A stretch of 64,000 bases of DNA from Gigantopelta aegis (taxonomy: Eukaryota): positions 67,754-131,753 of the forward strand of contig NW_024532772.1 in NCBI RefSeq assembly GCF_016097555.1, given 5' to 3'. Below the pieces are notes generated by a model. That model saw only the letters and a list, made by a program, of their open reading frames with translations, ran no database searches and was not told the origin of the DNA. Shown here piece by piece: positions 16,400 through 54,380 of this stretch (its first letter is position 1; the number at the start of each line of letters is the position of its first letter). The position numbers and the translations under genes are program-made.

Positions 16400-16487
16400 T
16401 GCTGCGGCAGTGAGGATATTTCCTGAAGTCTTAACTCGTAATCCAGGAGATATAGAAGCTACTATCTACAATAAAGCTAAATCTGAG
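16400..16487 (+). CDS. MED15: MED15-like locus 1, exon 2 (KIX continuation)
   Basis: AAAVRIFPEVLTRNPGDIEATIYNKAKSE between acceptor cttgttcag and donor GTAAGT. Confidence 0.55.
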
Positions 16488-23016: not shown

Positions 23017-23187
23017 GTAGATTTATAATTCTTTTACTCAATCATTGTATTTTTGTATGATAAAAATACAAACAAGCCTTAGTTTTATACCCATACAGTA
23101 AACGTTTCATACCCATGCATTGAAGTCTCATAGTCATTAATTAAAACTTTGATTCTTGTGTACACAGGAGGTGAAATGATGCAAAGG

Positions 23188-24340
23188 TCACGAGGAATGA
23201 AGGAAGGGAATTATGTGAACCATAGTATGCCAAGAGGTGTACGTCAACCAGATCCAACAGGATATCCCAGGTTTCAACCAGTAATGGATCTAATGCAGCC
23301 ACCAGCACATTATGGACCACATTCTGGTATGGGTATGCCAAGAATGATAAACCAACCTACTCCTCGGCCTGCATTGTATAACATGCCACAGTCAGGAGGC
23401 TCTGTGATGCAAAGACATCCACATATGGGAAGTCACCCTAGAATGGTTCGTCCACCTATGAACCCTCCTCCATTCATGACAAGGGGAATGCAACTAGGAA
23501 CAACTGTAATGCAGCTTTCTGGAGAACATTGTCAAATGATGACTCATCCTTATACTAGTGTAGTCAGCTCTTTACATCATCCTCCAAGTCATTTGCCAGT
23601 GGTGTCTCACTTTCTCTCTGAAACCCCTTCGACATTCTTTTCCAAAATGTTTCAAACACCGCAAAGACCCATTAGTGGTCCTCGATCATCTGTATCTCAT
23701 CTAGTTATTCAAGACAAATCAAAATCACTCCTCATAAACGAAATCTACACTCTCAATGTGATAAACTAAGCAAAAGACCAATTAATCCTCTCCTATCTTT
23801 ACCATTATCATCAGCTTCATTAGTGAATTCTGAAACTGTTATTGTATCTCCAAATGATTCATCTGGTTTTGTTTATAATAGTGTAGATGTGCCAATATCA
23901 TCAGAGCATCAATATGAAAGAAAGAAATCCATTGAAGAGGAACAGAAAAATGGCAGAAAATCACCAAAACAAGTGAAAACAAAAGAACCTCCTGACATAG
24001 CGCAATGTAAGATCACATCTAGTGCTTTTAAAAATGTTTCTTCTTTGGTGGTGGTATCATCAGATCATGAACATAATGTAATGACTACTCAAGAATCATT
24101 AGTTAGGCAGGGTCATCTATATTTTAAAGACCGTTCAAGGAAGCAATCAAATGAAATTGCATGTTGTAGTGATACAATCAATCAACAGTCATGGAAGGAG
24201 GGATGGGCTGATGGGTGGATGAATGGATGGATGGATGCATCAAAAGGTCTACCTCTGAATCCTGAAATACCGTTCAATTATAAAAATTTACCTCCAGAGC
24301 TAACAAGACCATCATCACTACCAAATTTTCAATTAACTAT
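23188..24340 (+). CDS. MED15: downstream M/P/H/Q-rich low-complexity exons of locus 1
   Basis: GGEMMQRSRGMKEG...MMQRHPHMGSHPRMVRPPMNPPPFMTRGMQLG... Paralogous to 27741-28195 and 34568-35158. Confidence 0.45.
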
Positions 24341-26881: not shown

Positions 26882-27193
26882 ATGTCTTCTGAGGAATGGA
26901 GGAGACCAGAAAAACGACAGGCAATTGTTAGGAAAATGTAAGAGTAATATTAAAAGATGTATGGACAAATAGATGAATGAACTGATGATATTGAATCGAA
27001 AGACCCACTTGTTGTTAAAGTTATATTATAACAAGCTTTGATGATATTCTTACAAACTGACCTTTAGAATAGAATTGTTACTATATTGTTATTGTTCTTG
27101 TTCAGTGCTGAGGCAGTGAGAATGTTTCCTGGAGTCTCAACTTGTAATCCAGGAGATGTAGAAGCTACTATTTACAACAAAGCTAAATCTGAG
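26882..27193 (+). CDS. MED15: MED15-like locus 2, exons 1-2 (KIX)
   Basis: MSSEEWRRPEKRQAIVRKM..., then intron, then exon 27106-27193 AEAVRMFPGVSTCNPGDVEATIYNKAKSE. Confidence 0.5.
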
Positions 27194-27740
27194 GTCAGTC
27201 TCACTTGTATATTGACCACACTACTGATTACTTTATTGTTTAATATTGTAAAGATAACAATACATCATTAACACAGTATTTATTGTTATATCAAAAAAAT
27301 ATATAATTATAACAAATATAAAAAATATCACAACAATCACTATAATATGAATACAAAATGTTTAATTATAATAAATTACAGTTTAATAATTGGGACATTA
27401 AATAGAACATCTTAATGGGTCTATATTTTTCCTAATCTATTTTATAGCATGAGTATATGAACATGGTTGGTAAGATAGATTTGTCTATTAAGCATAGAGG
27501 AATGGGACTGATCCAACAAACAACAACATCCTGCACAGCAACCAGGCGGATGGCAACCACAACCAGGTAGATAGATAAATGTTAAAGATCTTGTACCCAT
27601 CCAATGAAAGTGCGATACCTATAAATTAAAACTCTCACACACCTGTTCAGTAACCTCTTACTCATACATTAAAATGTCTCATACTCATACACTTGAACTC
27701 TCATACCCATTATTAAGAGCTTTCATTCTCATGTGCACAG

Positions 27741-28195
27741 GGGCACATTGTAGACCACATTCTGGTATTGGTATGCTAAGAATGATAAACCAACCTACTC
27801 CTCAGCCTGCAATGTATAACATGCCACAGTCGGGAGGCCGTATGATGCAAAGACATCCACATATGGGAAGTCACCCTGGAATGGTTCGTCCACCTATGAA
27901 CCTCCCTCCATTTATGACAAGGGGAATGCCACCGGGACAATGCCTCCAATGAGACCTGTAATGAATATGGCCTCGATGCAGGGTTCTGGGAAAACAAGTG
28001 GTGACAGCATTACCTAATCCATATATCACTGGAGTTGACCCTGCCCATCAACCTCCCGGCCATCCATCTGGTGCTCCCTCCCCTTATTCCAGAAGTGCTT
28101 CCTCGTCTGTTTATCAACCCTCTCATCCAACAGCTTCTTCAGGTGCACCTCCTCCACAACCACATCCTCCTCAGACCAATTCTCCAAAGCCTCGT
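27741..28195 (+). CDS. MED15: MED15-like locus 2, Q/P/M/S/Y-rich exon with two apparent 1-nt frameshifts
   Basis: ...MINQPTPQPAMYNMPQSGGRMMQRHPHMGSHPGMVRPPMNLPPFMTRGMPPG / MRPVMNMASMQGSGK / VTALPNPYITGVDPAHQPPGHPSGAPSPYSRSASSSVYQPSHPTASSGAPPPQPHPPQTNSPKPR, then GTAAGT. Confidence 0.45.
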
Positions 28196-28282
28196 GTAAG
28201 TTTGATAATTACCAATACATGAACGATCCTCCTTTTCCATATAGCCTCATATCCCATATCTCATATCCCATATCCCATCTCC

Positions 28283-28325
28283 CAATACTCCTTGGAATCC
28301 AATTAAGAAACTCTTTGTTGAGAAA
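28283..28325 (+). CDS. MED15: locus 2 remnant of the conserved Med15 C-terminal motif exon (..LRNSLLRKKR). The preceding ~320 bp present in locus 3 is deleted
   Basis: Alignment of 28270-28330 against 35270-35680. Confidence 0.35.
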
Positions 28326-29959
28326 GAAACGGGTAACTGCTTTGATAATCTAAGATCATCCACTCTCTATCTCTTTCCATTTATTTCATATTACTTTGTC
28401 TCCAACTTCCTCTCTTCTCATATGCCTTTTTCTATATCCAAATACAGCCCTTCTGATAAGTCACCTCCTAAGAAGAAAGCAAGTTTTGAAAACCAAAGTT
28501 GTTTACATAAAGTATATTATGAATTTATATATTCTTACCTAATACAGTTACATAAGGTATTATTATATATAGTAAAACACTTAATATAATATAGTAATGA
28601 GGAGCATATTAGCTTGCAACATTGGTACTATTATTTAAAGGAGAAGGTTGGGTATAAAGCAGTATGTGTGTGTGTGGGGGGGGTGTTACTATAGCAACAA
28701 TATTATAAATTGTTAATTGCAAGTAAACATTACTTCTTTCTTAACAACCAAGTAGGCTATTTATAGTATATCCTGTGTTTGATCATTTGTAATTATATTA
28801 AATGATAGTATGGGACTGTATACACTTCTTGGTTATGTTCTCTTACGAGGCAATTAACTATTAAATAAATGGTGTGAATATATTATTTATAATTCAAGAC
28901 TATTAGGCAATAGATTAAACAAGAGTATAAATCGAGATTGTCTTGACAGTACTAGGCTCTTATCTATGCTATTGTCTATAATACACAATGAGACTTCTCT
29001 ACCTAAGTGCTTGAACCTAAGCGTTTTTGTTAGCACCCTACTTAGATATTCAGTCAAGTTAAATGATTAACTAAAGATTCCAAGTTGGCAAAAGTAACAT
29101 CTTTCTTTGTCACTTACAAATGGAATCATTAGCTTCTATGTAAAAAAGCAAGGTTTCATTTTTGACAGTTATTATAGTGAAAAAAGCTTTATGGCTAAAG
29201 TTTGAAGTATTTACTGACTACATCAGAACTGTACCCATAATTCAATTTCTTAGCATTAACATCATATATTATCAAATTTTAATCTGCCTTACTTAATTTT
29301 ATATCTCTCCATTTTCCCACATTTTTTCCTTTATAATATCTTAAGGTACTATTAAGGAACAACAAGCCAATAAATTAGAGTTTGAAGAATTTAAAATTGC
29401 CACAGAAGTACAGAGTAAGGTTCGAATTGTTATATTAAGTAAATAGGATCAATTACAATGTCATTTCTTTAGATGTATCTGTTCTTCAAAATAATGCACG
29501 TTTTAGACAAGTATTTGAAAAGGCTACACCAGAACAAAGAAAGGTATGAAGATGATTAGTGACTATATGTTTATTATTATATTCTCTTTAAGATGTTAAT
29601 GGCCAGATTTGAACAAAAAGCACGACAGCAAGAACAAATCAGTATGTTTATAGTCTTCTAAATAATAAGTGTTACTTTGATGGTTATGTGCAGTGATGAA
29701 AGCTTTATGGCTAGTTAAATTCTAAAGAATACATCAGAACTGTACCCATAATTCAATTTCTTAGCATTAACATCATATATTATCAAATTTTAATCTGCCT
29801 TACTTAATTTTATATCTCTCCATTTTCCACATTTTTCTCATCCTAAGTCCTTGATCCTTTTAATGGCAATGAAGTAGTGTAACTTTTAATCATTATTTAT
29901 TTTGCATTGTCCATGTGTGTGACATTAAGAGAGGTTGGGGAATAGCATACCATAGAAAT

Positions 29960-35673: not shown

Positions 35674-37654
35674 GTAACGCTTTGATAATCTAAGATCATC
35701 CACTCTCTATCTTTCCCCCCCTCTCTCTCTCTCACACACACACAGGAGTACCTTCATTGGCTCCTTCCACATCTACAGCTCCAACTAAACAAGTGACTCT
35801 TTGATCGCTCCATCGACTCCCAATCTCGTCCTCCTATCCCATCCACTCCACCCATCTCATCCACTTCGCTACACAATTTCAAAAATGCTACATTCGCCAC
35901 CTCCCCTCTCCTCGTATCTCTATCCTACCCTTGATTCTGATGAAGATCTCTGATAGGTTACACCAGAGAGAGAGCAAAGCTTGAAGAACAAAGTAGTACT
36001 GAACATTACTCTCTATCCTGTTCTAACACGTTTGTCCTTTAGTTTCACAGTCTTTTCACTATGCCTTGAAGAGAGAAATTAATAATTTGAGACACTTTAA
36101 AGTTAAGCAGATACAACCCTTAACAAGCACGAAATGGACGCCACTCAGTAAACACTAGAATGTACTTTAAGTAAGTATCGGAAGAAAATCTCTCTCTCTC
36201 TCTCTCAGTCTCTTTCTCTCACAGTCTCTCTCTTCTCATAAAAAAGCTAACATCTCATTTTCCTTTTTTTAGTTGATGACAGCTTACCAAACAAATGCTC
36301 CTTTAATTGTTAATATCCCACGTGGAATATCCTCAGTTCTCCGAGTGTCAACTTAACAGTACTATTGCAAAACAAAGATGACTCTCCTGCTATCACAGCT
36401 GTCATTGAGGGTTTGTGGAGAAAGAAGCTGTTAAAGGAGAAACTATCACATTGTGGACATAATTATACACTAACTTCTACTTTTACAAAATTGGGAAGTG
36501 CTATAATTGAAGTGGTAGCGAGGAGATTTGAGTGATGATAAAGAATAATTGGTTTTTTTGTTTAGTTTTTGTTTTTGTTTTTGTTTACTAAACAAGCTCA
36601 AAAATTAATTTCAATTTTTTCCCCTATTGTAACTGCCATTGTCCAATTGTATCAATATTGTTATGATAATTAAAAGTACTTGTTAAACGTTCTATCAGTT
36701 AAATGGTATAGAGAGGATACTTCAGGTCAATGAAGTCTAAATGTTTCAGTGTGTATACCTATCTGAATAATTTGAGTTAGTAATCATCCCAACTCCAAAG
36801 GAACAGTAGATGCTTATCAACAGACAACTAACACTGTTTCCAAAGTTTGAAATCCCTCTGATGGTTGTAAATGCTAGAAATACGAGAGTACTTACAGCAG
36901 AGTGTCTGATTTTAAACTTTTATCGTTAATAGTCTTGGCAATCTCAGTTCCTATTATAAGTGACAATATTTTCTTATTTGAGACCAAATTCCTTTCGGAC
37001 TATCCATAAACCATTACTCTCATTCAGTCTTTTGTTAACACTCAATGTATTGATTAAATTTTCTTCATAGGACAGGACTATGGATAATGGATATGACAAC
37101 TCCCCTTTCCAGAAAAATGTACCATTGATGATGTATCATCAAATACTTTCCCACGTACATGTTTGGCTATAATAGGTACATGTACAGGATCATGTGGACA
37201 GACGTGGGTACCAAAGCATCCATTAAGGTTAGATAAACATTTAGAGTGTGTTTTTTGAACCATTTGGAAAGCAATACCTTATCATTTGATCATAGTGTAA
37301 ATATGTAATTAAATATATGTTGTTTAAAAGAAATTTAGCTTAATACTTATATGATATTTAGTTCTTTGTGGCTCCTATTAATTTAAATAATGATTTAAAA
37401 ATTAATATATCTAATGAGAGTTTAACAAATGTGTCATTTAGTTTAGACAAATTCAATGGGAAAAGTTCAGTAAGAGATGTTTGGTTAGTCAAATCGATAC
37501 TGTAGAAGTGGGGAAAAAATTATAAATTGTCTTTATATATTTTTACCTTTTGAAACTATCCACTCAGCATCTTTCAAGGCTTGTGAATAATTTGTTGAAT
37601 TCTTTCAGTATCTCTCTCATCAGAGTAAACTACGAAACTCCTATACCAAACAAC

Positions 37655-37686
37655 ATGTAATAATAATAATAATAATAAACAATAAC

Positions 37687-37731
<45 letters not shown>

Positions 37732-37735
37732 GTGT
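37655..37735. repeat. (ATT)n/(AAT)n microsatellite
   Basis: aataataataataataat... ORF 37630-37860 is its translation. Confidence 0.9.
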
Positions 37736-40259
37736 CTTATTCTGTGCTTATAATGCTGCTGTACATCTTCTGGTAAGAGTTGTAGCCTCCTCAGCAAGTG
37801 TCTGTAGAGAGCTAGAGGAGTCCTCACTACCAAGGTACCTACGAGTGCCATTAGCTTCAATTTTTAACCATTTCGTTCAATAATGGTCCACGCATGCGCA
37901 AACTATATACGTGTATTCGTGAAATAAAATTATAGTCATGCTGATTACATAATTATATACAGCCTCCTTGTATCACCAACACAGTAGCACTGCAATTGCT
38001 ATGTTAGTGGTGTCCTCAATGTCTGATGAACCATCCTATTTTTTAGAATTCCTGTAATCAACCAGCAAACAGTATGTTGTGAATGTACAAAGTCAGGTAT
38101 AATATTTTAAAGTTAAAAAAATTCAAATTAATGCAAAACTTATGCTGTCACATAGGAGTATGTTTACTGAAGGTATTACTAAACTTATACAGGATGTACA
38201 GTTATAGCAGTGGTACAACAACACTTTTATCAGAATCTCTTGTTCAAACTCTATCATGTAAAAGAAAAAAATACAATAAATATCAGAGCTTATTATTGAA
38301 AAACAGATACGAATTAATCATTGTTCCTGATAGATACCAAGATGTCATGAGTATTATGTTCAACTAGTCAATAATTAACTGAATTATTGATGCAAGGTAA
38401 GGTCTTGTATCACATTTTAAAAATGTTATTATTGACTACAGGACAAAACAACTAGTAGAACAAATTTCTAATGACGGATGGAAACAGGTTAACAAGTCAG
38501 TAATATTTTTATCAGCTATCGGGGGGACTCATTTTATCACAGTGACATGTAAAAATGTAATTACAGCAACAATAAGACACAGATAGTAGTGTGTGCTTGT
38601 ATTGAAAATACATGTTAGTAATGATATTAAGAGTGATACTCAATATTATGTTGAACAGTGTGTAACAAGAAAAATTCACCTTCAGGACTTGATTTTTGAG
38701 TTAGATAATTCAGTCAATATTCTAGACTACATTTGTGAAGGGTATGCACCTATAATCCTGTTATTTGACAAGATCAGTCATAGACTTGTCCCTAAGTTTA
38801 ATATAATATAAATTTAGGTATGGAAGCTGTGGTGAATCTCTTCAGACTATTGATGTAACAAAAAACATGCCAACCTTTATGTATTCACATAACAAAGACT
38901 TCAACATCGTTAGTCAAATATATTGTAACAAATAACATTTATAACATCAATTGTTATGTTTAATAGAAACTGAGTGTCCAGTTGTTCAAGTACAGGTATA
39001 AAACCTTAGATAAGATGTATGTAGCTAACACATACATCTGTATATTAACAATGTATGTATGTTATTTGCATATATCACATTCAGAAAACTACATTAAAAG
39101 GCCAGTGCCATTATAAACTTGTGGGGATAGTGAATATCAGAAATAGACACTACTCTTCATTATATACTCCACAAAAAAACAATACTTAATAGTTCTATAT
39201 CAGTAATACTAATGTATGTGCAAAATTGTATTTTTGTACAATTAATCACCAGTAATATAGGTTTACTCCTGTTAATACAGCAAAATCATTCAACAAGATA
39301 ACTTCTGCTTACATAAGAGAATGCAATAAACTTAAAAGGGGTTAAAAATTTGGATAAATAGCTGTGGGTAACCTACCTACTTGCCAGCCATTTTATTATT
39401 GAGAAGTAAACACCCCAAAATAAAATAAACGTACTTTTCAATTAATACACTTATATATAATATATACAGTCCACATGATAATCACATGATTTATCAGAGA
39501 GGTACTGATTCACATGATGCATGATACACATACATCTTTGTTCTCCTCTGGTCTACTGGTGATGAATTAAAAGAGTACAAATATTTAAATATAGGTTCAT
39601 TCATACAGCAAACCATTTGAGGTTGAGATAATTCATTCTCCTATCCAGTGTGGCCAGACATGAACGAAGAGGGTAGAGAAGCAGCAAATGTTGCTAGGGA
39701 TTTAAGTTCTGTCGAAAGGGAGGTAAAAGGGATATGAAAAGTGGGGTGTTGGTCATAAACTCCTCTGATTGGAACGTTGTTGATAATAGTCTAATGCTTT
39801 CTTAAGAAATGTGGAGACAGAGGCTTTGGACAATGTAACAAATGTTAACAAAACAGCTGCTAGTTCTAGAACACAGTGGAGATGACAAAGTCGCTGACAA
39901 CAGTCAAGTATAGTACCATCTGACGAGAAAAAGACCTCCACTTCTGATTGGGGTAGCTAGTCCATTTGAAGTAAAATAGATGACATAATCACGTTGCATT
40001 TTTTCAAGACCTTATTTCTGCTAGACATTGAATGGCTTTCTTTCTGTTAAAAGTAATTGTAATTTAGAGGCAACAACTTGTCGGTTCATCGTTAGATTTA
40101 GCTGAGAGCGCTTGACGAAAGAGATTTGCTAAAGTACTATTCTTATTATGATGAATGTAGGGTTGTGTACGACCAAGCAATACAGCTGTAAAAAACTAAT
40201 CCAAACGTATCAAAACTAAGTCACTAGGGTCAGCTGCATGTTTAGCACAAAAACATCCA

Positions 40260-41491
40260 TAATTGACCAACAAAATCAAGATCTTTCACGAGGTTGAAAA
40301 GGAGAACACTCGATAGCCGGAGAGAGGATTGATACTTCAAATGCACGTAACATTTGAGAGGATGCTTCTTCAAGAAAACCAGCTGTTTTGGGTGCTATAC
40401 TTGTCGGGGTTTCCAAAACATTTTCTTCATCTGACAAAGACCAGTAGAAACAGCAGAAGCAACTTTACAAAACTCCAAAAGGGACTCTATTTCTTTATAA
40501 ACATTGTAAAACTGGTGAATATTGAAAACCCAGGAGTTGCTTGGACTCTCAAAATAACGTCAGCAGTGTTAGGTGGAGGAGAGAAGACAGCATCTACTCC
40601 TTGCCACATGAACTCTATCGCTAGTTGACTATTAAGATATTCACTAGTCTCATCGACACATGGACCAATGGGTAGAGACTGGTCATCCAAACTAGTCTGT
40701 TTCGTAGTTGCTCAGATGATGATTTTTTCCGCGTAGGAAGAAGAGTTTTGGGTTTAATAGAGTAGGGCTGATTAGGATCAATTAACAGGGACTTCCTCTC
40801 TTGTATTCTGTAGAGGATCAAAGTGGATTGTCCCGATAATTTGTCTATATTAATTGAACAACCAAGTGCGACAGTATTTTTTGCATTTTTACTGCAAGGA
40901 ATCCATAATTCTGGTGCTTCTTCTAATGGTATGTTTCCACGACACCAAATAGCATAGCACGAACATAAATAATTAGCCAAATGTAGTGGGAGGGGCTTTT
41001 ACATCAGTATCCATGGCAATCGATAATGATGGTACTTCAAGTGGGCATGATTGTTTGTGTTGTTAAGTAGACCTTTTGTTGTTTTAGTACATGAGAAATT
41101 GATACCTGTGAATGGGCAGTAATATTGAATGGAGCTTTGTATGGGGTGGGTGTGGTCATGTCGGGACTCTCCTGTATTATTGGTTCTTGAGGGGTACTTG
41201 AGGATAACTGGTGACAAATACTGGCTTTCTGTTGATGAGGACCTACAATATGACTAAAAGGAGTCACAGTCCCCTTATCAAATGCAGTTAATATGTAGCG
41301 GTCTTTGTATAGAGTTGATGGAGTTGTTGGTCATGACTGATGTTATGGCTACACACTAACAGTGCTTGGCAGAATTCTTCTATCAAGCCATCTTCTAACC
41401 TGGTGAATGTAAATGAAGTCTCATCTAGTTCGTTTGTGACAGTACCAGCCTGTCTTAATTCAGATGAAAGATCCATCTTTGCACAATCCAC
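40260..41491 (-). CDS. unidentified multi-piece minus-strand gene, frameshifted or spliced, that shares a promoter with the XBP1-like gene
   Basis: Consecutive same-strand ORFs 41491-41288 (MDLSSELRQAGTVTNELDETSFTFTRLEDGLIEEFCQALLV..), 41267-41037, 40980-40621 (..APELWIPCSKNAKNTVALGCSINIDKL..) and 40690-40487 (..YLNSQLAIEFMWQGVDAVFSPPPNTADVILRVQ..). No family recognised. Confidence 0.3.
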
Positions 41492-41744
41492 CCTCTTTTA
41501 ACAGTCTTCAAAGTTCAAATTAAAATTTCCGCAAAAAATTGTAAACACGCCTAACTACCACGCCCTTAAAATTGACCAAATCAGATTCAGCCAGATCAGA
41601 ATAGCTACGGTATTGTCACTATTGTGTTGCATCAGTTACAATTGACCAATCAAAGGTAAACAAAGTTAGCAGAAGTACTAGAGAGAAGAGTATTAATAAT
41701 GACAATAATTATTAAATGATTCCTCATCTCAAGAAGTAATAGAG
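41492..41744. promoter_or_regulatory. ~250-bp bidirectional promoter region with GC-box-like CCACGCC motifs and CCAAT boxes
   Basis: aaACACGCCtaactaCCACGCCCtt at 41544-41566. attgaCCAAAtcag at 41571 and caattgaCCAATcaaagg at 41640. Confidence 0.45.
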
Positions 41745-42050
41745 ATGGATGCAAGTTTACTTACCAAAGGATTGTCGCCGAAACCAAAGATTCCTACTAC
41801 AACTGGTGACAATCAATTATTATTGTTGGGACTACAGCTCCTCAATAAATCATTAAAGTTACCTTATGCTGTGGTCAAACCTCAAGTTCAACCTCCTGAA
41901 AAAGGTGGAATTGGAGCTCTAAAGGATGGAGGAGAAGAGTTCGATAAAAATGATTCTCGTGAAAGTACACCTTCACCTCCGATGACTGGGAACAGCCGCA
42001 AGAGAAAAACATGATGGAGAACTGAGTGAAATGGAGAAAAGAGAGAAACG
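41745..42050 (+). CDS. XBP1: XBP1-like bZIP transcription factor, exon 1 (N-terminus + start of basic region). 1-nt frameshift at the A5 run at 42006-42010
   Basis: MDASLLTKGL...SPPMTGNSRKRK / HDGELSEMEKREKR matches XBP1 ..RKRQRLTHLSPEEKALRRKLKNR. GTAAGG donor at 42051. Confidence 0.7.
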
Positions 42051-42098
42051 GTAAGGTCCACAAGTTCACTCAAGACAATCAATTATCACTACATTTAG

Positions 42099-42194
42099 GA
42101 AAATGATGAACAGAGTAGTAGCACAGAACGCTCGAGATAGGAGAAGAATTATCTTGAGAGCTTAGAAATGAAGGTTGCACAGCTAGAAAAACAA
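42099..42194 (+). CDS. XBP1: XBP1-like exon 2 (basic region and start of leucine zipper). 1-nt frameshift near 42150
   Basis: KMMNRVVAQNARDRRR / KNYLESLEMKVAQLEKQ matches NRVAAQTARDRKKARMSELEQQVVDLEEENQ. Acceptor catttag, donor GTAAGT. Confidence 0.75.
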
Positions 42195-42241
42195 GTAAGT
42201 AATTGATGAATTACATCGATGTTGTCATATGTTATTATTAG

Positions 42242-42477
42242 AAAAGGAACTCCTTGAACAGAACAAAGAACTAAAGAGCAAAACAGATACTTTAGTTACT
42301 GAGAAAAGAGCTCTAGAATTGAAACTAGCACAATCATCATCTTTGGAGGCAACTCAAGATGGAGTAAGTATATCTAGTGTGACGGAAGAGAGTGGAATGG
42401 AGTGTGCTGGTCTGCCGTACCCTCAATTTCTCTGCAGCAGAAATGCACTCTTGTTCTACTCTCCCAAACCTGGATGA
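42242..42477 (+). CDS. XBP1: XBP1-like exon 3: zipper end, IRE1 splice site, unspliced-frame stop at 42475-42477
   Basis: KELLEQNKELKSKTDTLVTEKRALELKLAQSSSLEATQDG...AGLPYPQFLCSRNALLFYSPKPG* matches ..LLLENQLLREKTHGLVVENQELRQRLG. Confidence 0.7.
42415..42434 (+). other. XBP1: candidate 20-nt IRE1-excised unconventional intron
   Basis: 5' loop CUG|CCGU at 42412-42418 with stem GGU/ACC. 3' loop CUG|CAGC at 42432-42438 with a perfect 6-bp stem AUUUCU/AGAAAU at 42426-42431 and 42439-42444. Both loops fit CNG|NNGN. Intron length 20, which is 2 mod 3. Confidence 0.65.
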
Positions 42478-42649
42478 TCCTCAGGTCAGTAATCCACCAT
42501 TTGTCCAATATAATAGGACTTCTCATACTTTGAGTTGTGGACACTTGTGTACTAAACAATGGTGTTAGCAATGTCCACTCATCATTTCTCTCGAACACAG
42601 CAAGTCATTTACTTTCTTCTCTTTCTTTCTCTCTGTAGTCTCAGTTGCT

Positions 42650-42839
42650 TGCTTTCCTGTATAACGAACTGGCAGGAACCAAACAGTCTCCCACACAAAC
42701 CCTCATCAGAGCTTTTCATCACTACCGAACCAACTACCAGATAGCTACCAAGAATTTGTTTCCATTAGAGCGACAACGCCCACCAATAACGACTCTGGTG
42801 GGGACCACATCAACTCAGTTGGAACCACCCATGAACTAA
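42650..42839 (+). CDS. XBP1: downstream exon in the alternative frame, likely the activation domain of the spliced form
   Basis: Acceptor ctctctgtag. SQLLAFLYNELAGTKQSPTQTLIRAFHHYRTNYQIATKNLFPLERQRPPITTLVGTTSTQLEPPMN*. A further acidic segment at 42900-43035 (SELDKFLLDLNL) is in yet another frame. Confidence 0.4.
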
Positions 42840-44284
42840 CATCTAATTTTTCCCCTTCTCCTAATATTGCTACTGACTTTTCGATTTCTTATCAAACACA
42901 CCAGATACCTTCCAGTATCCTTATCAACCATTGACTCCAGAGAGCGTCAGGATGTCCCCAAAGGGATTTATGTCTGATAGCGAACTGGACAAATTCCTAT
43001 TGGATTTGAATCTGACAATGGCGCGATACTGGTTTTGATCTGGACAGTTTATATGACTTGTAAATTGTAGTATTATATATAGTATTGTAATATTTGTTTA
43101 AAACTAACTGTTATTTGTTGCAGTATATTTTTCTTTGTTCAATTAATTGCTAATTTTTTTGTCATTCAATGATTTTCTATTAATTTCAATATTCTAACAT
43201 ATGTTGTCATAGAGTGGAGGATATTTACATGAAGGTCTGTGCTACTGATGAACTGAGCTTTCCTGAGTTGTTTCTCTTTCTTTCTCTCCTGAGTTTTACG
43301 AGTCTGTCTAGTTCTTTCTCTAACTCTTACACTTTTCTTCGTTCTTTCTAACCCAGTGGTTTCCTTGTACCAAAATCCTAGTCCGCCCTCCTCCCAGTAT
43401 TCCGATGCTTAACGCTAATACACGACCTCCTGTTGACATTTCTCTCCAAAAGAGGGGAGAGAGCTTTAATTAGAATTTTAGGGTTATTTTTTTTTTAATT
43501 ATTTTTTTATTGTTTGTTCTTCCTTTGCTGCTTTTTTCCTTTCTTCTTTGATTTTCAATGGAGGTAGTGTTGGTAGTTTGAAGTGAGTTCTGAGAATAGG
43601 AAAACAGGAAAACAATCAACTATGATCTATTGTATCACAATAAACTAGCAAGATATGTTGGCAAACTCTAATAGTACTGGACACATCTTATAAGCCAATA
43701 TCAACCTAAGTTAGGGCTGGTTCGTAATATTACGCAGTATCATAAAGAGAGATATTGAAAATTGACTTACTGGACAGACTGAACATATTGGAATGAAGTT
43801 ACAGAATACTAGTGAAAAATAATGTTATATAAATATTATAATATTGGGTACTTACTTGCTAGACATACTGAACATACAAACCCTATATCAACTAATTTCT
43901 GATGACAAAAACCAAGCTGCTCTATAATCAACAACAGATGTAGAAGGAAGAGAGAGAAGAGATCGTGTACTAATGTCAGGTAGAAAAAATCCACTGAATA
44001 AAAAAAATGAAAAGTAAACAATATCACATGTAATGTAAAGATCTTCCTATACAATTAAAAGATTGTTATATCAGTATTATAAAGAGATTGTACTAACAAA
44101 ATGTGTTATTGTTATTGTTAATTACCAGTAGAAATTGTAGTAATGCAGCAGGTTCAGGGACTTTGATATAAATACCACCAGTAAGATCAGCTGCCTGTTT
44201 GTAGATAACTAGACTCCTCCCCACAATACACAACAGTCAATTATAATGTTCTGTGTATAGACCATGATAACAATACTAGTATAT

Positions 44285-44432
44285 AAGAAAATCTCTCTCT
44301 CTGGCTCTCTGTCTCTGTCTCTGTCTCTCTCTCATCGTTCTCTCTCTCTCTTACTCTCTCTCTCCTCTCTCTCTCTCTCTTCTCTCTCTCTTCTTTCTCT
44401 CTCTCTCTCTCTCTCTCTCACTTGTTTTTGTG
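44285..44432. repeat. (CT)n compound microsatellite
   Basis: ctctctctctggctctctgtctctgtctctgtctctctctc... ORF 44264-44467 is its translation. Confidence 0.9.
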
Positions 44433-44758
44433 CTGCAAAAAGACAATTCATAGTTGCCATATGTTGAGCTGCCATATCGGGAGCTGATCTGATGACTACA
44501 ATATATATATAGTTTTTAAATGTATTATGTCAGTTTAATACTTACTAAAATTCGTGGCTTTATAGTTTTTCCCCTGCTTGAGCTTCTCTAATACATCTTT
44601 GTATATCTTAAAATATGAGTCAAAGAAATAGCTACTTTCTCCATCCATTCATCCATTTATTAAAACATTCATTCAGATACAACAAAGACATCTACTTAAT
44701 CCACTAGACAATAAAGTAGAACTCGCCATTAATACCGGAGGATTCTCTATAATAACAT

Positions 44759-45261
44759 CTATGACATCATTATGACATCATCATATAACACACCTGCTAT
44801 TGATGCTAACACGCACTTCATTTCTTGTCTCAACAGACCATTCATGTGAGCGAGTGGTTCATACTTTCCTGACATTAATTCTTCATCTGTTTCCTCAAGT
44901 TCCAAACGACCGGCCACAGGATAAATAATATGACTATTTAAAGCAATTGCAATTGGTTGTTTCCATGGTAACCATGTTATGTTTTGTTGTACCTTCCAGC
45001 TTGATGACACAGAATGACACTGGACTGAATTAGAGTGACAAGAGAGCAGATATGAGTTGAGAAAAGTGATCACATGATCTACACATTGCTGAAAAGTTAA
45101 CTATATAATTCAAAAAATTGTTAAATAAAAAATTTAAAATGCATTGTTGAACAGCAATAACGCACAGTCTGTGAAGAGTCTTCTAATGATGTGCTTAGGT
45201 CATAATATTCTGAGAGGTCCAATACAACTAATAGAGTTTTTTTCTCTGCAGATGCAGCCAT
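44759..45261 (-). CDS. unidentified small minus-strand gene, at least 2 exons, transcribed divergently from MVP
   Basis: Exon 45261-45120 MAASAEKKTLLVVLDLSEYYDLSTSLEDSSQTV.. and the 104-aa ORF 45073-44759 (..ITWLPWKQPIAIALNSHIIYPVAGRLELEETDEELMSGKYEPLAHMNGLLRQEMK..). Confidence 0.35.
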
Positions 45262-45584
45262 CTTGTTTCATTGTTAAAATTTAATTTCAATGTTTCTAAA
45301 ATGTCCTACAATTAGATCATTTACGGTAATATGTTCAAGCACTCCGTTTTATTAGATTGAACTTCCGCAGGCGTTGTCGCTGCTTAGCAAGGGTCGTCTC
45401 ACTAGTTTGCTGTATCATTCTCTCTCCTCTCGCAGCTCGCAGATTAGTGGTAAGTTCTATTTGCATGCTTACACACACGCTTTGACTGAAAAGTGATGAT
45501 AAATGTTTTGCATGAGTAATGCGTAATCTGTTTGTGGGGGGGCGGTTCGTTTATTGCTTTTTGCTTGCAAGTAGGTTAACCATT
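45262..45584. promoter_or_regulatory. divergent promoter region including a non-coding MVP 5' exon and a 5'UTR intron
   Basis: ..tctcgcagctcgcagattagtg then GTAAGT at about 45449, and acceptor ttgcaagtag at 45572 just before the MVP ATG. Confidence 0.4.
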
Positions 45585-48500
45585 ATGGAGAGGACTGGCG
45601 TAAAGAAGGACGGAGAATCTAAAAGTATCTACCGTATACCACCACACTACTATCTTCATGTTCTTGACCAAAATACCATGTTACAAAGGTAAGTGAATGC
45701 AAACCAATATCACCACTCTTATCTTAAATAACAGGTTGAAGTCGGACCTAAGACCTTCATTCGTCAAGACAATGAAAAGGTCATCGTTGGTCCTGAAAAA
45801 ATGATTGTGGTACCTCCACGTCACTATTGCATTGTTGAGAACCCAATACTAAGAAATAAGACAACTTACCTATTGTTGACAGCCACGGACAAGTCAAGTT
45901 ACGTCATGCTGATCAAGAAATTAGGCTGGCTCAAGACCCTTTCCCGCTATTTCCAGGAGAGGTTCTAAAACAGGTATATATAACTAATGTTAGCAAAATA
46001 GAATGCATTATCTCTCTTTCTCATTTCAGGCTGTGACACAGTTGAAAGTAGTACCAGCTAAACTCCGCCCTTCGTCTGCGTGCTATTTTGGACTTTGAGG
46101 AGTTTGATGGTACTAAGAGAATTGCTGGAGATGAATGGCTGTTTGAAGGACCAGGTAAACATATCATTGGTTTGTGTTGTGTGCCCTAAAGATTAAATTA
46201 GTTTCATTATGAGTGCCACAAATTTATCAATTGTTTAGTGAAATTAAAAACGGGAATAAAGAAGTTTAGTTTGAGTTTAGTTTCTTAACTTGACCTTCCC
46301 TCTCATGATCTTCTCTTGTTTGCTCTCATTGAATGATACATTTAGTAACACTAAGAGATTGTTCACTATAGTAGGAGTTGTGTGTACTGAACATATTACA
46401 TTAAACTATGTGGCATTCTAGAGTTACAGATAATGCATAGACATTACTATCATTACACCTCTGAGGATAATCCTGCTTACCAAATTTCTAACTACCCACA
46501 AACAGAACTAAATTTAAAAGTATATTATACATCAAACTCTCTTCTCTTTCTTGGAAGACATTTTCAGCCCTGACCTAGCCAGCTAAATTAGGTCAAAGTG
46601 TGTAATTAAATTCATTCTAGTTATCTTAACCAGTTTAGCAACAAGTACAAGTAATAGCAACACTTAACAGGTGTTTGTGTTTTGAATAAACCAGCACCTG
46701 TCAAGACCTTATCCATTCCTCTTCCTCCCTCCTTTAGGGACCTACATACCTTGCAAGGAAGTGGTTGTTGAAGAGACTATCAGAGCTACCGTCATCCGAC
46801 CTAACCAGGCGATCAAGCTGAGAGCACGCAAAGAGACAACTGTGCGTTAAAATGTTGCTTCAAATTGTTTTTAATTATGTTTTCTTTTATAGGATCGTGA
46901 TGGTAATCCTCGTGTTACTGGTGAGGAGTGGCTTGTAAAGAAAGTTGGTGCATATTTGCCAGGAGCTTATGAAGAAGTTGTCGATGTTGTGGATGCCTAC
47001 GTCTTGACTGAAAAGGTAAACTGACAAAATACTAACTAAATTAAATACTGACCAATCCTTATTTGGAACTTACTCATTTCTCCATGTCAATTAGGTTGCC
47101 CTGCATATGAGAGCCACTAGAACATTTACAGATCGTAACGGAGTGACAAGAAAGAATGGAGAAGAATGGCTGATAAAAATGGAGGACACTGAAGCTCATA
47201 TACCTGATGTTTATGAGGAGGTAAGACAGAGAGACAACAGACAAGTAACAGGCTGATTGTTGTATGACAGATACCTATTTGATAAATTTTTAGAATCTTT
47301 CTTCTCTATTTCTAGGTTGTCGGGATCGTCAACATTACTACTCTCAACAATCGACAATACTGTGTCATTTTAGATCCTGCAGGAGATGATGGCAAACCTC
47401 AACTGGGTCAGAAGAAGCTTATAAAGGGAGAGAAATCATTCTTCTTGAGACCTGGAGAGAGATTGGAGAAGGGTATTCAAAATGTCTATGTTTTGGGTGA
47501 AGACGAGGGTCTTATTTTGAAAGCCAGTGAAAGTTTTGTGGACAATGATTTGGTGAGTTCGTGTTACAAATCTGAAACCCAATCCACAAGTTTCAGACTT
47601 GTTCCAAAATCATAATTAAATTCCATGATTCTAGGGAGCTGAGCGCAGACCAGGAGATCGTTGGATGATCCGAGGACCTTTGGAGTATGTTCCACCAGTT
47701 GAAGTTGAGGTACTGACAAAACGCAAGGCAATCCCTCTTGATGAGAACGAGGGTATCTATGTGAGAGATATTAAGACAGGTCGTGTACGAGCTATCTGTG
47801 GTGCCACCTACATGCTAACGCAAGATGAAGAACTATGGTCTAAGGAACTTCCTCCTGGTGTCGAAGAGCTCCTCGCACAAGGGAAAGACCCACTGGCTGA
47901 TCGCTCAGATCGAAGTAAGAGATTTTAATTCATAGTTTTACTTTGCCGTTATTTATGGTAATTCAGAATTCCATTCCTATTATTTCATATCTTCATTTCT
48001 AATATTCCATTCTTAGTTCTATTTGTGACTTATGTTTTTCAGGTCGTCCCTCTGCTCAAATAAAACGTGACAAAACAAAGTTGTAAGCTTCAGAGTACCA
48101 CACAATGCAGCTGTCCAGATATATGATTATAAGGACAAGATGGCTCGTGTTGTATTTGGTCCTGAAATGGTCATGTTAGGACCTGATGAGCAGTTTACTC
48201 AGCTTAGTCTTTCTGGCGGGAAACCAAAACGACCCAATCAGATCAAGTCACTCTGCTTGTTGCTAGGACCTGATTTCTGCACTGATATCATTACCGTGGA
48301 AACAGCTGATCATGCTCGTCTTTCTCTACAGCTTTCCTACAACTGGTCAGTCTTGTTTTAGTCATAGCAGCTGTTTTATTTATCAATATGTTTTTGGTGT
48401 AGGCATTTTGAAGTTGACAAGACCAATGCCGATGATGCTGCTAAGATCTTTTCTGTTCCAGATTTTGTTGGTGACGCATGCAAAGCCATTGCCTCTCGTG

Positions 48501-49671
48501 TCCGTGGTACTGTTGCTGGTGTCCAATTTGATGACTTCCATAAGGTAAGTATCAATCAGTCACTTGTTATATAATGTGTCCTCCTCTTTCTTTGTAGAAT
48601 TCTGCTAGAATTATTCGCTCGTCTGTGTTTGGTTTAGATGATCGTGGAAAAGTCAAAGATCGTTTCTCCTTCCCTGCCAATAATCTTATCATTACAAGTA
48701 TTGATATCCAATCTGTTGAACCTGTTGATCAACGTACTCGTGATGCCCTACAAAAGTCTGTACAATTAGCTATTGAGATCACCACAAACTCACAAGAAGC
48801 TACTGCTCGGTGAGTCAAAGAGACGCATGTATAAATATGACCTCTGTCTCTTTCTTTAGCCATGAGGCTGAACGTTTGGAGCAAAAAGCAAAAGGTGCTT
48901 TGGAAAGACAAAAGATTACTGACGAAGCTGAAGCAGAGAAAGCTCGTAAAGACTTGTTGGAGCTCCAGGCCAAACAGGTCAGGATACTCTTAATAAATTG
49001 TAACTGTTTAGTTTTGTACTCTTGTTATACAGTGCTGCTGTGGAGTCTACTGGTCAGGCCAAAGCTGAGGCTCAGTCTCGTGCTGAGGCTTCAAAGATCG
49101 AGGGTGAGGCTGCTGTAGAGCAAGCTAAGCTAAAAGCACAGGCCTCTAAGATTGAAGCTGTAAGTTAGGACTTACTTAGTATCAAAAAATTTAATCGTTT
49201 CTATCTCTAGGAATCTGAGCTTGAACGTCTCTCGAGGGCACGTGAAGCTGAAATCAAAGTACATCGGAGAACAAAATGAATTAGAGATTTCAAAATCTCG
49301 TGAGCTCTCTGATATTGAAACTTCAAAATTTAAAAAATATGGTTGATGCCATTGGAGCTGATACTATTGCAGCTATTTCTACAGCTGGACCAGAAATGCA
49401 GGTCAGTGGTAACAAAGAACTGTAATAATGATACACTTAATATATTGAAGTATTGATACCAAACTAAGTTTAGTATTTTAGCTATTTTGATCATGTAAAC
49501 TATATTTACTTGACCTTCTCAATTTTATAGGTGAAGATGTTACAAGCTCTTGGTCTACGTTCTACACTCATTACTGACGGAAGTAATCCTATTAATCTGT
49601 TCAATACAGCTCATGGTCTTGTTGGCTCACTTCAAAGTGCTCCGAGAATTATTGAAGAGCCAGAGGATTAA
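45585..49671 (+). CDS. MVP: major vault protein gene (MVP), about 15 coding exons, with several 1-nt frame breaks
   Basis: Approximate exons 45585-45688, 45735-45963, 46031-46148, 46738-46843, 46893-47027, 47097-47220, 47316-47556, 47633-47919, 48051-48346, 48401-48545, 48598-48819, 48858-48967, 49033-49164, 49209-49401, 49532-49671. Peptides match human MVP: [297 protein letters not shown]. Frame breaks near 45686/45735, 45865, 46070 (aaa run), 48086 (aaaa run), 49250 and 49335. Confidence 0.85.
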
Positions 49672-50689
49672 GAGAAGAGACTGATAAAATTTGAAATGGC
49701 TACAAATTAGACAGCCTTTATCTTGTAGGAAGTATGTTTGTTTTAAACCCGTTCTTTTTTAGTTCAAATGACATAATAGAATTTATATTACATTTGTTTA
49801 TGCAAATTTATAGAATCCCTTTTTACAATTAAGAAAAGTGTCTAAATACAATAAAACAGTGTTTGTTTTGTCTCTCTACAATAGCTGGGTCTTTGCTAAG
49901 ACGGAGGAAATATCCCTAAGTCCTCTCCAACGATGACGAACAGCTAATAGAAGTACTTGAACTGATGACTCACCTGGTTTACTACAAATGGACAGATGAA
50001 TAGATCAATGTATCTGTTTGACATATAGACAAACAGATACACACCCATACCTTGATAACCTCATAAATGTAATAGAACCGACCAACCTATCTTCTATTCC
50101 AATTGAAACAAAATCTAATGGATCCATGTTCCTTCTCTCTTTAACTCGAGTCAAAAATCTGTCTCGTTCTTTGTCATAAGTTTTTACTTCTTTTCATTCT
50201 CTTCCTCTTCCTCAGCCCTATAATAAAGAAATAATTAATAAGTTCATCCAATTAATGTCTTACTTACTTACTTGTTATCATTTTATATCATTATATTTAA
50301 TGTTTTGTTAAATTGCTTCTAGTTCCATGTCTGGAAAGCAGCTGAATAGAGAGTTAGCTGCCATGGAGTGAAAGAGATTACATGAATCGATGTGTGGGGA
50401 GACACCACGGATAGGACTCCAGCCATTAGAACTCTCTCTTTTCTCTCTTACTTCATCATCACCATGACCTTTTAAACAATAAAAAATTAATTGATTTTTT
50501 ATTTGTTGTAACATAAAAAAGAGACAATGATACTTTGCATTAGTAATATGAAATTAGCACAATAAAACAAATATTCTGACACAAGCAGACAACTATGCTA
50601 TTTAGTGCCACATTAGCATTAACTTTACTTTGGATTGACTGACATTTCTTGTAGTTTATTTAAAAGTTAAGATTTATTAAAAATAATAA

Positions 50690-51140
50690 TAAAAAACATG
50701 TTGTGTTGCCCAAACGATTCCTACTCGCTCACCCACTCAGGCTTCCACTTAGGCTCCAGGATTCCCTGCTATTGCTAGCTGGGACCGCCACCTGGCTTGG
50801 TAACCCTCGTCTTCGCGAGGTAATCCTGGCTGGAGCATCGCCCTAACTTAAAACCAGCCGTACGGGATTCCAGCTCTTAGGGAATGTCGCATTCAGGAAC
50901 CGGGAACCACAAATACACCAGCCTCTTCTCGTTTAAAAGGGAGACTACCAGCCCTATCCTAGTCGGCCTTTCGGATACTCCGTAGAGTATGCTGGTAACC
51001 ATCTCAGAGGTCTGATGCATTGCAGAACGCTGGCCCACAACACAACCTATCCAAGGTGGTTTTCATTTCCTTTTATATGTACTGCAGATTTTGTCTTCAG
51101 TCTCTTGTGGGGCGGCTCTGTGTACGCTTATGAATCTCAT
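50690..51140. other. ~450-bp GC-rich, CpG-rich, ORF-free island in AT-rich surroundings. Candidate structured ncRNA or SINE
   Basis: There is a compositional jump (tcgtcttcgcgagg, ccgtacgggattcc, ggcctttcggatactccgtagag) and the duplicated motif gggattcc/ggaatccc. No ORF of 60 aa or more lies between 50514 and 52278. Confidence 0.3.
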
Positions 51141-51639
51141 TAACGGTACCGATGAATATGATTACTATCATCGATGAACTAAAAAGACTGTTGAAAATTA
51201 GTTCTACTTAAGCAAACTAGAACAACATTACTAATTATAATAATCTTTATCATATCTTAATTTTATAGGGCTTAAAAAAATAAAAATCATTACCTAAAAC
51301 ATTCTTCGTTATCTAAATTTATAACAGCTCCTTTAGTTCTTCAAGTCCTCCAGCTTTGGATAACTTTCTTCAGTTAATGGCTATTGACTTACCTTGTCGT
51401 AGCTATAATTAGCTAATTATATAGGGTCAACCTAAGACTGTTTTATATAACAACAGTTAATACAGAAATGGACATTCATAATTTTATGTCTCAATTTTAT
51501 AAGAAGTGGTGGCATAATCTTTAAGCTTTTAAAAAGTTGCAATGGTACATCGAGAAGCCAGATAAATAATAAGTTATAGGACAAAGTTAAAAATACCAGT
51601 CAAACAGGTTTTGGATATAATAAATCTATATTATCAGTA

Positions 51640-51930
51640 GCAACAAGGGACAGGGGTCAACTCCCTTCTGGAAGTGGAGATAAGGAAAGAGGTGAAGCTC
51701 CATTTTATCTCTCTTTAGTAGGTGTAAGTCCTTCAGGTACTTCTAATATTAACTTCTCAATTGTACACATATCTTGTGAAGGGACAATGTCCTGATCTTG
51801 GTAGTTTGATGCCTTTCCCATTATGATGTCTGTATACACTTGAATGACCTGAAATCATTTCTTCAGACTGACCATATAGTATAGTTGTAGTATTCACCTC
51901 AGTTACAACCAAGACTTTGAAACATGGTGG
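51640..51930 (-). CDS. terminal exons of an unidentified minus-strand gene
   Basis: ..PCFKVLVVTE | VIQVYTDIIMGKASNYQDQDIVPSQDMCTIEKLILEVPEGLTPTKERDKMELHLFPYLHFQKGVDPCPLLLLIIDLLYPKPV*. Acceptor aatgatttcag, donor GTGAAT. Confidence 0.3.
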
Positions 51931-52715
51931 AGTGAGTAGTCATCAAAAAGTAAATTATTCTTAATAGAAGGGGTAATTATATGTAATTATATGTATACCT
52001 ATGTTACTGGTGATTGATTGTACAAAATACAATTTTGCACATACATTACTGTTACTGATATAGAACTATTAAGTATTGTTTTCTGTGGAGTGTATAATGA
52101 AGAGTAGTGTCTATTCTGATATTTCACTATCCCACAAGTTTATAAATGGCAGTGCCTTTTAATGTAGTTTTCTGAATGCGATACATACATTGTTAATATA
52201 CAGATGTATGTGTTAGCTACATACATCTTATCTAATGTTTTTATACCTGTACTTGAACAACTGGACACTCAGTTCTATTAAACATAACAATTGATGTCGT
52301 AAATGTTATTTGTTACAATATGTTTGACTAATGATGTTGAAGTCTTTAAGATGTGAATACATAAAAGCAGTAGTGAATTAATGATATATAAGGGGTTAAA
52401 ATCACTAGGTGGAGTTATATACACAACTAATGGAGCAAAAGGTTTATGGCAAAGACAAATGGTACCATGGATTAGAGGTATAGGTGGTTTACTATGGTAA
52501 CAGTATATATGGTTACAGGATGTTAACATAGTCATAGGAAGTAGAAAGGTATACATTAAATTATTGTTATTACATGTGTAGTTACAATGAGTATACTATA
52601 TATGTTGTTTGTATTAGTCTTGTCATTAGATTTTTTTAAAGTTGAAGGAAATTTAGAATTTATTACAAAATACACATTGCTGTGTTTGTTGTCGGTTAAT
52701 TCACTCCACCCACAC

Positions 52716-54380
52716 TGAACCTTTAACTATCTTTTTTAAATCGATCTATCTTAAAGTATGACAGATCATAAGATGGTGGTAACTCCAGAGTTAATTCAGT
52801 GAGTATCTTGCCTACAACTGGACCTAATTTAAAACCATGTCCTGTAATTAAAGGGTTAAAATTAACTGTCCAGTTTGACCGTTATTTTACCTGAAAATCC
52901 AGCTCCTATAATATATTAGGATGGTTTGGGTGTCTGTCCAAGAATGGGTTTTTTGTCTGACTATAGAACATAGAAATTAAATTAACTCCTTCCTATACAC
53001 ATATTCTCACTGTCATTGTGTACATGCAGAATTCCATTATAGCAGGTTCACTAGAAACCACACCCTTAAAATGATCTTTAACAAATTGTGACGTAATCTT
53101 AAAAGAGTAGCTGTCAGGACTGGCATCACGACTATCAGGATCAACGTCAGGACCATGATGTAGACAAACCTAATATAATATAACTATATGATATTAATAT
53201 TCATTAAAATGTCATATTATAGGCTCAATCCCATACTCCATATTATGTACAATACCATAGGCTCAATCTCATACTCCAAATTATGTACAATACCATAGGC
53301 TCAATCCCATATTCCATATTATGTACAAAACCATAGGCTCAATCCCATACTCCATATTATGTACAATACCATAGGCTCAATCCCATACTCCATATTATGT
53401 ACAATACCATAGGCAATCCCATATTCCATATTATGTACAATACCATAGGCTCAATTCATACTCCATATTATGTACAATACATAGGCTCAATCCCATACTC
53501 CATATTATGTACAATACCATAGGCTCAATCTCATACTCCAAATTATGTACAATACCATAGGCTCAATCCCATATTCCATATTATGTACAAAACCATAGGC
53601 TCAATCCCATACTCCATATTATGTACAATACCATAGGCTCAATCCCATATTCCATATTATGTACAATACATAGGCTCAATCCCATACTCCATATTATGTA
53701 CAATACCATAGGCTCAATCCCATACTCTATATTATGTACAATACCATAGGCTCAATCCCATACTCCATATTATGTACAATACCATAGGCTCAATCCCATA
53801 CTCTATATTATGTACAATACCATAGGCTCAATCCCATACTCCATATTATGTACAATACCATAGGCTCAATCCCATACTCTATATTATGTCCCATACAATT
53901 CCATACTCCACAACACACTCATTATTTCATATTACAATAATACCATAGTCTGCTCTAGTTACGCCATACTACAATCCTCAGGCTCATTCCCATTATTCCA
54001 TACCTTTAAAAGCCCAGGATACTCATATATAGGAAGACCATAAAATTCAGTCTTGTTGATAGACTTGCAAATAAAAGTTGGAAACTCATTGGCAGAGAAG
54101 ATCTTTGGATCCTCAGTTTGCCAATATAGAACTTCTGTTCTTATTGGCTATTGGAGACATACTGTTAGTACGAATGTATGTATATCGTTGTTACCTGAAG
54201 TGGTAATGTTAATCCAGTGAGTGTTGTTAATTTATTAGTCCATGCTCCAGCTGTTAAGATTAGTCTCTTAGTTTTAAAGTTGTTACCTCTCTCAGTTTGA
54301 ACAGTGATAATATCTCCTGGAATTATATCAGTAACTTTATGATTGTCTAATAGTTGACCTCCATGTTGAATAAAAAGATC

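Follow-up and report, generated by a model that had tools for sequence, protein, structure and literature searches.

A probable IRE1–XBP1 splicing switch with a 20-nt unconventional intron in a demosponge bZIP gene

The window, meaning the whole 64,000-nucleotide stretch of DNA analysed here, very probably contains a demosponge orthologue of XBP1, the mRNA of which folds at 42388–42463 into the canonical bifurcated stem-loop recognised by IRE1 and operates the splicing switch proposed below. The original prediction had called an XBP1-like gene with an IRE1-type site from the sequence of the window, and this central call is supported by homology, by Rfam, by eight further sponge loci and by a spliced cDNA of a related sponge. 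According to the proposed mechanism, the unspliced mRNA would be translated in unstressed cells to XBP1u (282 aa, as encoded by the clean copy of the locus), whose HR2-like segment and C-terminal arrest peptide would make the ribosome pause and recruit the mRNA to the ER membrane. Once the ER is stressed, IRE1 would cut after G42414 and G42434, each being the G in the third position of its loop, and a 20-nt piece would leave; the exon halves, held by stem S1, would zip into an extended helix and be joined by an RtcB-type ligase. The loss of 20 nt (2 mod 3) would shift the frame and swap the HR2 and arrest tail for an acidic activation domain, giving an XBP1s of 350 aa. Behind these putative steps stands the established IRE1 pathway (PMC4687415, PMC11077094). 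The mechanism itself is not new; the pathway is known from yeast to mammals and an Rfam family exists already.

The gene lies on the forward strand. Exon 1 (41745–42050) starts with an ATG at 41745 and encodes, as an exon that is in frame in the clean copy, the N-terminal region, an RKRK motif and the start of the basic region. Exon 2 (42099–42194) encodes the basic region KMMNRVVAQNARDRRK and the start of the leucine zipper, while exon 3 (42242–42484) contains the remaining zipper, the bifurcated stem-loop with its IRE1 sites and the start of HR2. The coding part of exon 4 (42639–43063) holds two overlapping frames, terminating at TAA 42837–42839 for XBP1u and at TAA 43061–43063 for XBP1s. 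Introns in this gene were 48–154 nt long, and the window is eukaryotic, with approximately 35% G+C. Spliceosomal intron 3 occupies 42485–42638, with its donor, CAG/GTCAGT, at 42485–42486 and its acceptor ending at 42638. These boundaries replace those first put forward, which had placed the donor at 42483 and the next exon at 42650–42839; exon 4 in fact begins at 42639.

The frame-corrected translation matched the Pfam profile bZIP_1 (PF00170; E = 1e-08, 35.6 bits against a cut-off of 27.6), while the literal exon 2 peptide alone gave E = 0.011. After indel correction the zipper heptads L0/L7/L14/L21/L28 were unbroken. The top homologues in protein searches were sponge XBP1u proteins, and the nearest named relative was an NCBI entry, 'X-box-binding protein 1-like [Amphimedon queenslandica]' (E = 1.4e-19). 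Further matches included a JGI 'X box-binding protein 1' and, more weakly, XBP1 of Hydra vulgaris and of the tardigrade Hypsibius. A homologue of Zwilch, a component of the kinetochore RZZ complex, was found on the opposite strand at 39494–41476, forming a single ORF of 654 aa in the clean copy. It lies immediately upstream of XBP1 in a head-to-head arrangement that is common to A. queenslandica. The bZIP domain, the XBP1 homologues and the adjacency of Zwilch together mean that the XBP1 assignment holds, and the bZIP identity claimed at the outset is upheld by the Pfam profile match and by the XBP1 homologues. No gene for IRE1 or RtcB was present among the window ORFs examined.

An ENA contig (ERZ21830300, ctg717434l; hereafter L010) was taken as a clean copy of the locus. 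It was 98% identical to the window across 38787–53101, and every XBP1 frame was intact in L010. Over 14.4 kb, 139 indel events and 93 substitutions separated the window from L010; single-base indels numbered 118, of which 95 adjoined an identical base. The density of indels was uneven, being 29 per kb at 39–40 kb and 1–6 per kb at 45–53 kb. Indels that were not multiples of three numbered 14 in the XBP1 exons, 25 in the Zwilch ORF and none in two major vault protein ORFs, which were unbroken in the window (47665–47928 and 48140–48361). Within XBP1, exon 1 had gained one A at ~42005, breaking the frame; exon 2 had lost one A at ~42143; exon 4 contained eight frame-breaking indels; and one C was missing from the XBP1u tail at ~42824. 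One G was also missing from the run at 42409–42410, where the window reads GCT-GGTCTGCC and both L010 and L001, a further sponge homologue, read GCTGGGTCTGCC.

Taken literally, the XBP1 copy in the window requires a change of frame in almost every exon and contains stops in every frame; with 14 frame-breaking indels it could encode neither XBP1u nor XBP1s. These features would be expected of a decayed pseudogene, in which the hairpins were a fossil and the switch no longer worked at this locus. That reading is improbable, although it is the best placed of the alternatives. The damage extends to the neighbouring Zwilch gene, whose ORF is unbroken in L010. The excess of indels over substitutions, with most single-base events beside an identical base, is characteristic of long-read homopolymer error and not of neutral decay. 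In addition, the RNA element differs from the clean copy at one position only, the missing G upstream of the 5' loop. The indel pattern fits regional long-read homopolymer error and no decay aimed at XBP1; the reading frames in the window are scrambled because of the many 1-bp indels in the assembly. Arguments from ORFs or frames are unreliable on this assembly.

Two further differences from L010 were observed in this part of the gene. The window has a 3-nt insertion at 42367–42369 relative to both L010 and L001, which creates a donor-like GTAAGT; this could reflect a genuine in-frame codon polymorphism or be one more error of the assembly. At the acceptor of intron 2 (42232–42243), the window is without 8 nt found in L010 (TTCTTGTA); hence the apparent AG is a different one in the window, and one base is missing from the first codons of exon 3.

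In L010, XBP1u was 282 aa long. With the missing G restored, the bZIP frame continues through ...GMECAGSAVPSISLQQKCTLVLLSQTWMILS and, across intron 3, LSCLLSCITNW..., to finish with ...LWWGPHQLSWNPPMN and the stop at 42837–42839. Excision in silico of the short intron from L010 produced an XBP1s of 350 aa, ending ...DSFIDL with its stop at 43061–43063, which is a gain of 68 aa. The excision joins UCU G/CA GCA, so that the protein passes from ...GSAAEMHSCSTLPNLDDPQ to SQLLAFLYNELAG...; at the 3' site, LQQ is encoded before splicing and AA after it. The original prediction had placed the unspliced stop at 42475, and this applies to the literal sequence only: the stop at 42475–42477 arises because one G is missing from the run at 42409–42410, as L010 and L001 show. 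It had also directed the spliced frame towards an ORF that closes at 42839; this ORF encodes the C-terminal end of the unspliced protein, and the spliced frame stops at 43061–43063. Its frame logic is inverted, owing to assembly indels.

The RNA element itself could be read directly from the sequence. The 5' loop, CTGCCGT, occupies 42412–42418 and the 3' loop, CTGCAGC, occupies 42432–42438. Both are 7 nt long and match the IRE1 consensus CNG/NNGN, the cut being flanked by C at -3 and by G at both -1 and +3. The 5' arm hairpin (42409–42421) presents CUGCCGU above a stem of GGU and ACC, and the 3' arm hairpin (42426–42444) presents CUGCAGC above AUUUCU and AGAAAU; the predicted cuts fall between 42414 and 42415 in the first and between 42434 and 42435 in the second. 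The 3' stem (42426–42431 with 42439–42444) is a perfect 6 bp. The 5' stem is 3 bp in the window (42409–42411 with 42419–42421) and 4 bp in the clean sequence, GGGU with ACCC. Both arms are enclosed by the outer exon–exon stem S1, which pairs ~42388–42405 with 42445–42463, and the linker between the arms is 3 nt in this 20-nt version. The segment between the two predicted cuts is the unconventional intron, 42415–42434 (CCGUACCCUCAAUUUCUCUG). Its removal would leave the junction ...GGGUCUG/CAGCAGAAAU..., with the 5' cut falling after the first base of an alanine codon (UCU G/CC). On these elements the original prediction was accurate: both 7-nt loops and both closing stems are present where it had put them, and it gave the correct coordinates and length for a 20-nt, 2 mod 3 excision.

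Both strands of the window were scanned for twin-loop sites, defined as two CNGNNGN loops, each closed by 3 bp or more, spaced 15–30 nt apart. Exactly one such site was found in 64 kb. Composition-matched, first-order Markov random sequences gave an expectation of 0.145 sites per 64 kb, falling to 0.02 where the 3' stem was required to be at least 6 bp. With a single site observed against 0.02–0.15 expected, the twin motif is therefore real and not a chance match.

The top Rfam match at this site was RF04247 ('bZIP non canonical Hac1/Xbp1 intron'), both in the window (42392–42459, 25.5 bits, E = 0.094 over 3 kb) and in all eight homologous sponge loci (28.2–40.5 bits; 32.4 for L001). The gathering threshold of 41 bits was reached by neither the window nor any of the eight loci, mainly because the sponge 5' arm is 3–4 bp long and the 6 bp of the model are therefore met by deletions. 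Folding, which had been suggested as a check for twin stem-loops, did not return them as the minimum free energy (MFE) structure: the twin hairpins were absent from unconstrained folds of the window, both for 42392–42459 and for 79-nt segments. The twin-hairpin fold lay 2.5–6.9 kcal/mol above the MFE, at -25.4 against -32.3 kcal/mol for the window and at -29.1 against -31.6 kcal/mol with the G restored. The MFE structure of the window pairs UCUGC with GCAGA, that is, the near-palindromic loop sequences with each other. Since unconstrained folds did not contain the twin hairpins, reliance was placed on constrained folds, Rfam and comparative data.

Under constrained folding, the three-way junction formed in all nine loci, with S1 sequences that were wholly different between species. 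Pairs were counted from gap-free concatenated arms; the whole-element MAFFT alignment, in which linkers of unequal length had put the S1 registers and the fourth 5'-arm pair out of place, was excluded. By this count, 98.9% of cells in the arm stems were paired, and the sole unpaired cell was the window's own U·C, created by the missing G. Two compensatory pairs were seen, the base of each arm switching between G-C and A-U. Covariation support for the arms is thin because most pairs are invariant and also lie in doubly coding sequence. After excision, the RNA refolds to a single extended stem whose 6-nt loop contains the junction. This fits the zipper model, in which the exon halves zip together after cleavage (PMC4687415).

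The comparison set consisted of DNA from eight further sponge homologues (L001–L008), of which L002 is Amphimedon. Comparison with XBP1 from related species, another check proposed at the start, found the twin loops at the equivalent GSA codon of all eight. The intervening segment was 20 nt in L001–L004, 23 nt in L005, L006 and L008, and 26 nt in L007; L010 had the same 20-nt site as the window. Counting the window and L010 as one, a 20-nt intron occurred in five of nine nucleotide-level sponge loci, the rest having 23 or 26 nt. The intron had been described in advance as unusually short for a metazoan; the length of 20 nt is confirmed, but 'unusually' carries little weight when five of nine sponge loci share it. 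A 20/23/26-nt series is already known for Hac1/Xbp1 introns. Additional length comprised whole codons in the linker between the arms (linkers of 3, 6 or 9 nt), and the spacing of the twin loops was always 2 mod 3 across the sponge loci. The six key loop positions were invariant in all nine sponge sequences. Excision in silico extended the ORF by 50–132 aa in each of L001–L008, and the frames opened in this way shared the motifs GSAAE, LVG and EPTxEL as well as an acidic C-terminus. Further protein matches imply that the same three lengths, 20, 23 and 26 nt, would recur beyond the loci compared as DNA.

Six of the homologues (L003–L008) were cDNAs without spliceosomal introns, in which the short segment was still present; the spliceosome is therefore not its remover. 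A search with the spliced-frame tail identified one protein of 402 aa (P0013), with a bZIP domain and a GSA/AET junction. Its contig, L009, reads GGGTCTG/CAGCAGAAAC and is missing precisely the 23-nt inter-loop segment found in its relative L006. Judging from this precise correspondence, L009 is a naturally spliced sponge XBP1 mRNA of the 23-nt class. Protein searches for spliced isoforms returned no spliced form of any 20-nt locus or from the species of the window.

These comparisons bear on the view that the hairpins match the consensus by chance, or that they are cut by IRE1 only for RIDD-type decay and never spliced productively. The motif CNGNNGN is indeed loose, occurring 893 times on the two strands of the window (45 of these closed by 3 bp or more), and the MFE structure does not contain the twin hairpins. 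Even so, this explanation is very unlikely. A correctly spaced pair is expected far less than once per window, as noted above; the site falls at the orthologous codon of an XBP1 gene, with a spacing that is always 2 mod 3 in sponges; the long second frame, with its conserved motifs and acidic C-terminus, opens only upon excision; and a spliced cDNA exists in a related sponge. Least credible is an ordinary spliceosomal intron (GT-AG, 42364–42437) with incidental hairpins: its donor GTAAGT at 42364 and pyrimidine-rich acceptor ...TTTCTCTGCAG at 42437 delimit a 74-nt interval that joins the literal bZIP frame to an open frame, QKCTLVLL..., with no correction needed, but this candidate was rejected, given that GTAAGT occurs in the window alone (L010 and L001 read GGAGTA, a 3-nt gap, then TTATCT), that six sponge cDNA contigs without spliceosomal introns keep the region and translate it in XBP1u as GSA(V/A)P...LQQK, and that the spliced cDNA L009 is without only the short inter-loop segment.

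A hydrophobic, HR2-like segment of XBP1u, CTLVLLSQTWMILS followed by LSCLLSCITNW, extends over 42444–42672, being coded across intron 3 by 42444–42484 and 42639–42672. An arrest-peptide-like tail, LWWGPHQLSWN[P]PMN, is coded by 42793–42839 and closes with the stop at 42837–42839. In the clean copy, the hydrophobic CTLVLLSQTWMILSLSCLLSCITNW was followed by ...LWWGPHQLSWNPPMN and a stop, which is consistent with the presence of both an HR2 and an arrest tail; the hydrophobic segment was situated ~55–80 residues upstream of the XBP1u tail. The HR2-like call draws in part on the human HR2 sequence. Published work on HR2 was used beside it (PMC11077094). The C-termini of sponge XBP1u proteins were compared (P0001–P0012 and P0029–P0031), and WWG....WNPP(M/K/R)N directly before the stop closed 10 of 11 full-length proteins; P0009 ends WNPPKKN.

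The arrest peptide of human XBP1u ends with QWGRHQPSWKPLMN and a stop. Compared with this human end, the XBP1u tail of the sponge locus (WWGPHQLSWNPPMN and stop) is the same at W249, G250, H252, Q253, S255, W256, P258, M260, N261 and the stop codon. Four human residues are replaced in the sponge (R251 by P, P254 by L, K257 by N and L259 by P), and the upstream PP motif sits one residue away from its position in human XBP1u. Residues W249–H252, W256 and P258 are optimal for arrest in the human protein (PMC6624018). The close resemblance, which takes in residues described as critical for arrest, suggests that sponges may also use ribosome pausing for membrane targeting of XBP1 mRNA, and the pausing and ER-targeting device may predate the bilaterians.

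With other metazoan XBP1 genes, the sponge locus has in common a bZIP gene, two 7-nt loops of C(C/U)G/CAGC type, stems S1, S2 and S3, a 2 mod 3 intron and an extended stem after splicing. Its 3' loop, CUGCAGC, is identical to the human 3' loop. The human 5' cut likewise follows the first base of an alanine codon (UCC G/CA), and LQQ and AA are the alternative readings across the human 3' site. XBP1 introns measure 26 nt in vertebrates, including humans, and 23 nt in flies and nematodes; here, the intron is 20 nt, with a 5' arm of 3–4 bp and an inter-arm linker of 3 nt. The 5' loop also differs, CUGCCGU having C at +2 and U at +4, and the window and its sponge relatives score below the RF04247 threshold as described above. 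The published phylogenetic sample covered vertebrates, insects and nematodes only (PMC4687415).

Introns of similar length occur in fungal HAC1/hacA, being 20 nt in Aspergillus and Trichoderma and 19–22 nt in Candida albicans and its relatives (PMC6222058); 20 nt is reportedly also mentioned in PMC2606855. The sponge element and its fungal counterparts have in common the 20-nt length, the twin-hairpin CNG/NNGN logic and a frameshift that swaps the C-terminus. In contrast to HAC1, the sponge gene is of XBP1 type by protein homology and carries the animal-specific HR2 and arrest-peptide tail, which is absent from HAC1. The difference in ER targeting between animals and yeast has been described (PMC11077094).

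Considered together, it is rather more probable than otherwise that a complete vertebrate-style switch, combining twin hairpins, HR2 and the XBP1u arrest peptide, was already present in sponges, with co-translational delivery of XBP1 mRNA to the ER from the base of the animals, an intron that steps through 20, 23 and 26 nt by whole codons within one phylum, and, at 20 nt, the shortest functional XBP1 intron yet observed in animals. To our knowledge, a 20-nt intron in animals has not been highlighted before. No paper on sponge XBP1 splicing was found in the literature, and early-branching animals may be listed by Hooks & Griffiths-Jones 2011, reportedly the source of RF04247. Direct sequence evidence for the IRE1–XBP1 switch now reaches the Porifera, with one naturally spliced cDNA. 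Conservation from sponge to human of the RNA structure, the dual-frame coding and the arrest-like tail of XBP1u helps to date co-translational targeting, while the 20-nt version, with its 3–4 bp arm and 3-nt linker, is a compact natural substrate for defining the minimal RNA needs of IRE1 and RtcB.

Several other features were noted elsewhere in the window. Rfam matches to snoRNAs near the XBP1 gene (E = 5.6–6.1) were dismissed as chance. An ORF on the reverse strand at 37630–37860 consists mostly of Ile and Tyr codon runs and represents an AT-rich microsatellite, not a gene. A major vault protein gene lies on the forward strand at ~46000–49100, where ORFs of L010 matched the Pfam domains Vault, Vault_3, Vault_4 and MVP_shoulder. 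Cross-matches in the BLAST comparison of L010 with the window revealed an inverted repeat pair, ~380 nt long and ~90% alike, at 38876–39266 and 51993–52365. Dispersed copies of other segments were seen at ~16290–16578, 23123–23491 and 26999–28373, and these repeat copies are probably transposable-element remnants.
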